From: a virus
Lineage: Monodnaviria; Loebvirae; Hofneiviricota; Faserviricetes; Tubulavirales; Inoviridae
Reading direction: 5' to 3' (one strand)
Length of the DNA stretch: 8,367 nucleotides
Virus record (IMG/VR): IMGVR_UViG_2675903352_000001
A program made the translations under genes and the position numbers. Positions 7,679-7,891 of this stretch are shown piece after piece. Numbering within the stretch: the first letter of the stretch is position 1; every line of letters begins with the position of its first letter. The notes below the pieces were generated by a model. The model had not been told where the DNA came from. It did not search any database and was given only the letters and a program-made list of their open reading frames with translations.

Positions 7679-7891
7679 ATGAAAAAAGAAACAAAGCGCG
7701 GAGACACAACCGTAAGGATTAACGAAAACAGAAAACTGGAGCTAAAACGAAGAGTGCTGGAAATCGGTAATAAAACAGGTGAGCTACTAAAACCATCAGA
7801 GATAGTAAACCACTTAATAGACAACTACTTAGATGATGCGGTGAAAGATCTAATAAGCAAAGAAGAACTTAAGAAAAAAAAGGCAATGTGA
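7679..7891 (+). CDS. Small Lys-rich protein (70 aa), candidate ribbon-helix-helix transcriptional regulator
   Basis: SD GAGGT 8 nt upstream of ATG 7679. Divergent from the phage operon. Sequence TTVRINENRKLELKRRVLEIG...SEIVNHLIDNYL fits a beta-strand/helix/helix pattern, but that fold call is my inference only. Confidence 0.5.
   Translation: MKKETKRGDTTVRINENRKLELKRRVLEIGNKTGELLKPSEIVNHLIDNYLDDAVKDLISKEELKKKKAM

Follow-up and report, generated by a model that had tools for sequence, protein, structure and literature searches.

The 70-aa protein encoded at positions 7679-7891 of IMG/VR record IMGVR_UViG_2675903352_000001 is, with a probability that we put at roughly 0.75, the immunity or lysogeny repressor of a dif-integrated, CTXphi-like filamentous prophage. 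The window, by which we mean the whole 8367-nt stretch of DNA analyzed here, is a filamentous (inovirus) prophage of Escherichia coli, and the repressor would be a ribbon-helix-helix (RHH) protein of what may be termed the small RstR type, acting on two phased operators. A previous reading of the sequence alone had singled out this gene as a candidate lysogeny repressor, arguing that it stands where filamentous prophages typically carry theirs, and the computational analysis indicates that this proposal was essentially right, repression itself being its conditional part. The gene sits at the rstR position of CTXphi-like phages, its product is homologous to deposited RstR and RstR-like proteins and is predicted to adopt an RHH fold, and the sequence and spacing of the putative operators are conserved together with the protein.

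The gene, its relatives and its predicted fold

The gene and its upstream signal are located as follows:

7679-7891 (stop codon included), plus strand: RstR-like ribbon-helix-helix protein gene, 70 aa (open reading frame, RefSeq coding sequence, PHROG 2503, homology, dN/dS and predicted fold)
7665-7669, plus strand: Shine-Dalgarno-like AGAGG, 9 nt 5' of the ATG (by eye from the sequence)

The open reading frame (ORF) starts with an ATG at 7679 and ends with a stop codon at 7889-7891 on the plus strand, divergent from the minus-strand phage operon, and the same reading frame is present in E. coli E24377A as RefSeq WP_000712390, labelled hypothetical protein. Pairwise ratios of non-synonymous to synonymous substitution (dN/dS) between the gene and its relatives range from 0.05 to 0.28, with synonymous sites near saturation; the gene is under purifying selection and is genuine, as the sequence-only reading had assumed. 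Relatives of the protein are found in Salmonella, Escherichia albertii, Gilliamella, Providencia, Xenorhabdus, Arsenophonus, Photorhabdus and Vibrio. Within E. coli the module is rare (26 of 5426 complete genomes), and its carriers often hold several copies each.

The homology that carries the repressor interpretation is to genes of Vibrio phages. A DNA search of phage records returned about 70% identity to rstR of V. cholerae pre-CTX and CTXphi and to the RstR-like gene of V. anguillarum VAI1/VAI2, the latter deposited as 'RstR-like putative transcriptional regulator' (ORF11). At the protein level, identity is 63-64% to the RstR of pre-CTX (KR063268) and CTXphi (GQ466608, GQ466611 and GU942563) and to the RstR-like protein of VAI1/VAI2; the E. 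coli protein and these Vibrio proteins share the N-terminal segment KRGDTTVRINE without a substitution. GenBank notes on the Vibrio relative describe it as 'environmental RstR' and as 'repressor of rstA transcription ... similar to RstR proteins found in non-O1, non-O139 strains', and the Vibrio allele is named here after the first of these notes. The 70-aa protein also matches PHROG 2503, a group of unknown function, with E=1.5e-27, its residues 6-68 corresponding to positions 2-64 of the 65-position profile. Scans of the protein against Pfam and NCBIfam matched no family, and no Pfam helix-turn-helix (HTH) model was matched up to E=1.

The predicted structure adds to this picture, and a good model required the deeper of two alignments. 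The AlphaFold model built from 31 close homologues had a predicted local distance difference test (pLDDT) value of 74 and gave no meaningful match when compared with the PDB by Foldseek, whereas the one built from a 73-sequence alignment reached a pLDDT of 93, with residues 1-15 extended and helices at residues 16-33 and 39-69. The structural matches of the latter are RHH proteins, including omega and CopG-family chains, and its best match in BFVD is the RstR of CTXphi (E=4.6e-6, TM 0.79). DSSP makes no strand call in the monomer model because the partner chain is absent. The earlier suggestion that the protein resembles an RHH DNA-binding fold is thus borne out by structure prediction, where the strand-helix-helix model and the fold matches agree, and is left without a counterpart among significant RHH sequence profiles; in a Pfam scan of the relatives, sub-threshold ParG matches appear in 8 of 73 (best E=0.019), plus one PutA RHH match. 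We accept the RHH fold as the best reading of the model. In the segment T11-V12-R13-I14-N15, the close clade shows no variation at T11 and R13 and a conservation of at least 90% at N15, while these positions vary across the wider family; by analogy with Arc, T11, R13 and N15 would face the DNA.

An exhaustive profile search for further members returned 80 representative relatives at E<=0.001, nearly all of them 49-102 aa long, with two outliers that are repetitive multi-stretch matches of 1043 and 449 aa. One clade of relatives starts with (M)xKYTSLRV and, judging from the published rstR-6 primers (MKKKYTSLRV...TDLKR), RstR-6 would belong to it. Comparison by hhalign identifies an RstR6-like protein as a clear family member (probability 99.4%) and RstR-calc as a marginal relative (76%); RstR-calc was recovered from a viral contig and was the only one of the three alleles that primer-based scans of viral contigs for RstR-6, RstR-5 and RstR-calc yielded. 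Small rstR alleles (calc, 180 bp; 5, 204 bp; 6, 192 bp) have each been reported to repress only the cognate ig-2 promoter in lux assays in E. coli (PMC11509585), which supports a repressor function for the 70-aa protein by family analogy.

The family also extends to a classical coliphage. In the non-integrating coliphage If1 (U02303), an unannotated 63-aa member (MATPKRTTMAIVAERKLKLERLAIDASH...) lies inside the 'major intergenic region', at 1483-1674 of locus L013 (about 5120-5310 of the record, minus strand), antisense to the phage genes. Upstream of this ORF, towards the expected position of gene II, stand an IS200-like tnpA ORF and the annotated ORF348.

The intergenic region and its putative operators

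The 70-aa gene is transcribed divergently from a 65-aa ORF and the replication gene rep, with 137 nt between them, and the following elements are proposed for this gap:

7599-7615, no strand: right operator block O_R (putative), TGTAAATAC plus the palindrome CGCATGCG(C) (conserved 15-mer, invariant alignment columns)
7557-7576, no strand: left operator block O_L (putative), TATTTAC plus CGCATGCG plus CGCAT (repeats, alignment, spacing)
7553-7604, minus strand: predicted leftward (replication-operon) promoter region (consensus scan and equivalent promoters in relatives)
7635-7643, plus strand: possible extended -10 TGGAATAAT of the repressor gene's own promoter (deduced from the sequence)

The sequence-only reading had described this region as rich in palindromes and had taken these as the likely target of the protein, and both suggestions withstand comparison. 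The palindrome CGCATGCG occurs twice in the window (7564-7571 and 7607-7614), both times in the intergenic gap and 43 bp apart, against 0.2 occurrences expected in the whole window, and the inverted repeats TATTTACCGCA/TGCTGTAAATA are found in the gap as well. An alignment of the gap across 7 loci from 6 genera reveals two conserved blocks, (T)ATTTACnnCATGCnCnCAT and TGTAAATACRCATRC, with the remainder diverged, and the columns of O_R are invariant in it. In all 13 of the 13 loci with a GDTTVRINE-type protein and an upstream region, a single copy of the 15-mer TGTAAATACRCATRC is located 70-80 nt 5' of the start codon; these close homologues come from Vibrio, E. coli, Xenorhabdus, Photorhabdus, Arsenophonus and Gilliamella, and the 15-mer was not found in loci carrying other alleles. 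The CATGC cores of both blocks are exactly 43 bp apart in every locus measured (10 of 10). The sequence and spacing of the putative operators have been kept although the synonymous sites of the gene are saturated, and the putative target is conserved with the protein across two γ-proteobacterial orders.

The blocks can be assigned to the small protein by virtue of their neighbors. The divergent arrangement with the Rep gene is the same in 8 related loci, the RstR-like gene always lying about 125-175 nt from an inovirus Rep gene, and the adjoining Rep belongs to one of three families: Rep_trans (E. coli, Photorhabdus and Vibrio), Phage_CRI/G2P (Xenorhabdus, Gilliamella and Arsenophonus) and a 666-aa 'replication endonuclease' (another E. 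coli). Since the same blocks are found beside three unrelated Rep families, they belong with the small protein and not with the replication system. The idea that they are origin or Rep-binding elements was rejected on this ground, and also because they are lost where another repressor gene replaces them.

Other branches of the family point in the same direction. The sister clade with another N-terminal strand (YTSLRV, RstR6-like) has a different repeat, CATGTATACATG, whose copies are also spaced 43 bp in the RstR6-like V. cyclitrophicus phage (L012), the one locus analyzed for spacing. In E. coli AST205 (L018 2150-2741), the 70-aa gene has a homologue, 90% identical in its DNA, that no longer possesses the CGCATGCG operators. 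A second family member (60 aa, MKRKAIAITESTYLDITR..., strand KAIAITE) lies between this homologue and rep, preceded by repeated TGTTAACA palindromes in place of the CGCATGCG blocks, and the locus looks like an immunity-cassette replacement caught midway. Both the V. cyclitrophicus repeat and the AST205 replacement fit the notion of allele-specific operators, and the co-occurrence of each block with one type of protein argues for putative cognate sites in the intergenic region.

Two placements of the leftward promoter come into consideration. A consensus scan of the window favors a -35 TTGTGA (7581-7576) and a -10 TATATT (7558-7553) separated by 17 nt, with O_L in the spacer. The position-equivalent of the promoters of relatives consists instead of a -35 TTTACA (7604-7599), 18 nt and a -10 TGTGAT (7580-7575); at the equivalent place, the consensus scan finds TTTACA-18-TATCAT/TATTAT, with 10 of 12 matches, in Xenorhabdus, Photorhabdus and V. 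cholerae pre-CTX. Since this -35 is the reverse complement of TGTAAA inside O_R, the right block covers it; in relatives, the left block follows immediately after the -10, where transcription would probably start. Under either option the operator blocks overlap the leftward promoter, and bound protein would occlude RNA polymerase. As to the opposite direction, TGGAATAAT at 7635-7643, downstream of the right block, may belong to the promoter of the repressor gene; it escaped the consensus scan, and -10-like hexamers of other taxa occupy the same alignment columns. A plus-strand promoter-like site at 7533-7560 was dismissed as a chance occurrence, overlying the start of the leftward ORF and lacking conservation.

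The leftward promoter region also differs between lineages. At 7550-7560, the lineage of the window has CAATATATTTAC where its relatives (L004, L008 and L019) have CAATATTTAC, and it carries CATCACAATC as compared with CATCATATTC in E. coli L019. Their combined effect is to impair the conserved -10 (TATGAT to TGTGAT) and give rise to another (TATATT), which suggests that the promoter of the rep operon has been rewired in this lineage.

In the mechanism that we propose, DNA binding, the promoter controlled, the direction of regulation and the oligomeric state are what we infer from the above. The protein would dimerize via its N-terminal strand DTTVRIN, with T11, R13 and N15 pointing outward and reading the major groove, and dimers would sit on the two blocks around CGCATGCG, whose cores, 43 bp or some four helical turns apart, would present them on nearly the same face of the DNA. 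At the leftward promoter, the -35 would be covered by O_R and the spacer or start-site region by O_L, so that the bound repressor would silence the 65-aa ORF, rep and the phage genes further downstream. Such a shut-off would keep the prophage quiet and block the replication of an incoming phage of the same immunity type. If TGGAATAAT does drive the repressor gene, O_R abuts the repressor's own promoter, and autoregulation is likely.

The same region can also be read with a different sign. A DNA-binding regulator acting here need not be a lysogeny repressor; it might be a Cro-like or activator-type switch, or a mere autoregulator, with host factors silencing the rep operon. The conservation of binding sites says nothing on the sign of regulation, the conserved leftward promoter has a degenerate -10 in this lineage and the intergenic region contains no LexA box (CTGT-N8-ACAG), the sole near-match in the window (659-674) being at chance level. 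Moreover, in the related YpfPhi it is the host protein RovA that represses phage genes (PMC4266046). Nonetheless, the arrangement in every taxon, with operator blocks overlying core promoter elements of the rep operon, is that of repression, the related small rstR alleles are repressors (PMC11509585) and the module in the window has no second regulator gene. On balance, we consider a regulator of this other kind unlikely.

The prophage, its replication genes and the downstream hairpin

The genomic setting of the putative repressor comprises its presumed target operon and a hairpin on its far side:

6148-7374, minus strand: replication initiator, Rep_trans/RstA-like, in the presumed target operon of the repressor (Pfam PF02486, E=1.6e-21; phrog_453, E=1e-108)
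7347-7541, minus strand: first gene of the divergent operon, acidic 65-aa protein, phrog_3104, function unknown (ORF and PHROG match)
7977-8000, no strand: hairpin ACCCCCGT-GTTACAAG-ACGGGGGT followed by TTTTT, likely plus-strand origin (Rep nick) hairpin (pattern, stem conservation)

The left junction of the prophage is marked by a near-perfect E. coli dif site, AGTGCGCATAATGTATATTATGTTAAAT, at 415-442 on the minus strand (1 mismatch), and the element is therefore an Xer/dif-integrated prophage, as are CTXphi, CUS-1 and YpfPhi. The right 2.9 kb of the window are 99% identical to a prophage of the enterotoxigenic E. coli (ETEC) strain E24377A, in which hipBA lies just past the right prophage end. 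All phage genes are carried by the minus strand and encode a secretin, Zot, a pIII-like protein, coat proteins, the Rep_trans/RstA-like initiator and the 65-aa ORF. The gene for this last, very acidic protein overlaps the start of rep. Photorhabdus has a 64-aa ORF at the same place before its Rep_trans gene, a likeness by position only, and the 65-aa ORF of the presumed repressed operon has no counterpart in CTXphi or in relatives of the Phage_CRI type. Outside the prophage, on the dif side, positions 1-222 (minus strand) hold a Phd/YefM-family antitoxin gene (TIGR01552, E=4e-8), which is unannotated at the corresponding place in E24377A.

The sequence-only reading had the 70-aa gene end at a strong terminator, and here it must be corrected. 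The hairpin and its T-run begin 86 nt past the stop codon, and terminator-like sites are no more frequent in the region than in shuffled sequence (1 found, 1.1 expected). The minimum-energy fold of the RNA favors a competing hairpin at 7983-8021, formed by overlapping inverted repeat arms (7983-7997 and 8007-8021), that puts the T-run in a loop, and the T-run itself follows the stem only in E. coli, there being none in the Vibrio and Photorhabdus phages. The stem ACCCCCGT/ACGGGGGT, on the other hand, is present in all loci of the Rep_trans/RstA type (CTXphi with calc or environmental rstR, VAI2, Photorhabdus and E. coli) and was not found in any Phage_CRI locus examined. The CTXphi ori(+) is a 167-bp segment adjoining rstR; RstA cleaves it at a G-T step, within the loop at the tip of the second hairpin (PMC4439123). 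The phage-strand loops of the stem in question read CTTG/TAAC in E. coli, CTAG/TATT in Vibrio and CCTG/TACT in Photorhabdus, the slash marking the G-T step. Given a stem near the 3' end of an rstR-like gene, a G-T step in its loop and the co-occurrence with an RstA-type Rep, the hairpin most likely represents the plus-strand origin. By analogy with CTXphi, the nick would fall between 7989 and 7988 of the minus strand, 7977-8000 being the presumed equivalent of the 'second hairpin' of that phage. In E. coli, the hairpin may serve in addition as a terminator for the repressor transcript. Reading it as a replication origin prevents its mis-annotation as a terminator.

Past this origin region, near the right prophage end, positions 8194-8367 (plus strand) encode a 57-aa single-pass membrane protein with a basic tail, and this ORF bears on a second alternative, according to which the 70-aa protein would be an RHH antitoxin or a partition-type protein (ParG-, omega- or CopG-like) engaged in the maintenance of the prophage or of its replicative form. 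One version of it pairs the 70-aa protein with the 57-aa membrane protein, which displays a sub-threshold likeness to Fst-type type I toxins (E=0.046), and the weak ParG matches would be in keeping with a partition role. Yet the downstream ORF lies about 300 nt off, beyond the origin hairpin, and related loci have other ORFs or none in its place. No toxin or ParA gene adjoins in any locus examined, and the constant partner across loci is the Rep gene with its operator pair, all of which makes an antitoxin or partition function very improbable.

The state of the structural genes raises a further alternative, namely that the gene is intact and functionally idle, a leftover of a decaying prophage whose features reflect past selection. 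Positions 441-4145 of the window are 95.6% identical to E24377A, with 23 gap openings in 3.7 kb; two separate ORFs, 912-1352 and 1199-2131, make up the secretin, and Zot measures 324 aa as compared with 418 aa in E24377A. These broken frames could reflect either prophage decay or assembly errors. In AST205, moreover, the homologue has lost its operators to an inserted second repressor gene. Against this, E24377A and other strains share the 70-aa gene, the operators, rep and the origin hairpin at about 99% identity and without indels, the frameshifts elsewhere could be assembly errors, and a repressor would still be useful for superinfection immunity in a defective prophage. We find it quite improbable that the gene is idle, and each of these three alternatives appears less likely than an RstR-type repressor.

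Several observations nonetheless weigh against the RstR-type repressor. With regard to homology, the RstR label of the closest homologues derives from position and annotation, the tested RstR6 is tied to the family solely via its primer-encoded termini and the V. cyclitrophicus relative, and RstR-calc is a marginal relative at 76% hhalign probability. As to the fold, the N-terminal strand is unpaired in the monomer model, no RHH model in Pfam or NCBIfam (RHH_1, CopG, ParG, Arc and similar) is matched significantly, and a profile search of PDB sequences gives weak RHH matches (TTHA0139, E=0.35; ParG, E=0.48). At the leftward promoter, the -10 equivalent of this E. coli lineage, TGTGAT, is without the key A at position 2, and the alternative promoter of the scan leaves a leader of only about 5 nt. 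Lastly, with secretin and Zot fragmented relative to E24377A, the repressor circuit may be idle in this prophage.

A possible immunity cassette and comparison with known systems

The family and operator data also lend themselves to a wider proposal, which we put forward tentatively and at slightly less than even odds. The small RstR proteins might constitute an unrecognized RHH superfamily, without a Pfam model, that forms a portable immunity cassette composed of the repressor and an allele-specific operator pair in a fixed 43-bp phase. This cassette would have been exchanged among phages with three unrelated replication initiators in the Vibrionaceae, the Enterobacterales and the Orbaceae, and would encompass the CTXphi heteroimmunity alleles environmental, 6 and possibly calc and 5, as well as the unannotated copy in If1. 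If this were true, operator specificity could be read from three strand residues, and the immunity groups of inoviruses, including the cholera-toxin phages, would be predictable from sequence. What lies above routine in this case is the lack of a curated family, the putative portable repressor-operator cassette with its 43-bp phasing and the re-reading of a terminator as a probable origin, the kind of repressor being already known.

Filamentous prophages integrated at dif are common in enteric pathogens and their regulation outside Vibrio is almost unstudied, the present case concerning E. coli lineages related to E24377A. The repressor and its operators would provide a handle for inducing or curing such prophages and for probing their contribution to fitness, and their identification would allow heteroimmune phages to be predicted. 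The match to the 'environmental' rstR allele of CTXphi ties together the immunity modules of E. coli and cholera phages. The apparent movement of the cassette separately from the replication gene also bears on the origin of new CTXphi immunity types.

Among known systems, the RHH repressors Arc/Mnt of P22, CopG, omega and MetJ resemble the 70-aa protein in small size and in the predicted strand-helix-helix fold, and in having sites that consist of short palindromes or repeats, the 8-bp CGCATGCG being reminiscent of the 8-bp MetJ box. The E. coli protein departs from them in having no significant profile match, a longer inter-helix loop (GNKTGELLKPS) and a second helix that runs to residue 69, and in that its putative sites are 43 bp apart instead of adjacent.

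The canonical El Tor and classical RstR proteins, HTH proteins of the Cro/C1 type, occupy the same position in their phages, and a similar role is what we envisage for the E. coli protein. They are HTH_XRE-type proteins of about 112 aa (336-339 bp), as opposed to 70 aa and RHH fold matches here, and, judging by the RHH-like model and the lack of an HTH match, the two are not homologous. Canonical RstR binds ig-2 operators, represses PrstA and determines heteroimmunity (PMC11509585; PMC4439123). The production of RstA, driven by PrstA, is in CTXphi also under SOS control (PMC4439123), a further difference from the E. coli prophage, whose intergenic region has no LexA box. YPO2273 of the Yersinia pestis phage YpfPhi has been called an RstR homologue whose role 'awaits experimental demonstration' (PMC4266046); YpfPhi and the CUS-1 prophage of E. 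coli K1 are likewise dif-integrated enterobacterial filamentous prophages with a gene at the rstR position, a comparison made by position and not by sequence.

Closer to the protein studied here are the tested small alleles (RstR-6, RstR-5 and RstR-calc), with which it shares a small size (59-67 aa in their case) and the genomic position, and, in the case of the RstR6-like protein, a repeat pair that is also spaced 43 bp, whereas the recognition strand and the operator sequence are not the same. The closest counterparts are the 'environmental' RstR of CTXphi and pre-CTXphi and ORF11 of VAI1/VAI2. The E. coli prophage differs from these in its host, in the Lys-rich C-terminal tail of its protein, which is 6 residues longer, in the extra 65-aa ORF before rep and in its leftward promoter, where the Vibrio -10 TATTAT has become TGTGAT and a 2-nt insertion creates another -10. 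Nevertheless, identity extends at 63-64% over the whole core, with an identical strand RGDTTVRINE, the gene lies in the same divergent position beside an RstA-type rep, with the same ori hairpin downstream, and both systems have the same putative operator blocks, GCATGCGCGCAT and CTGTAAATACRCATRC, at the same 43-bp spacing.
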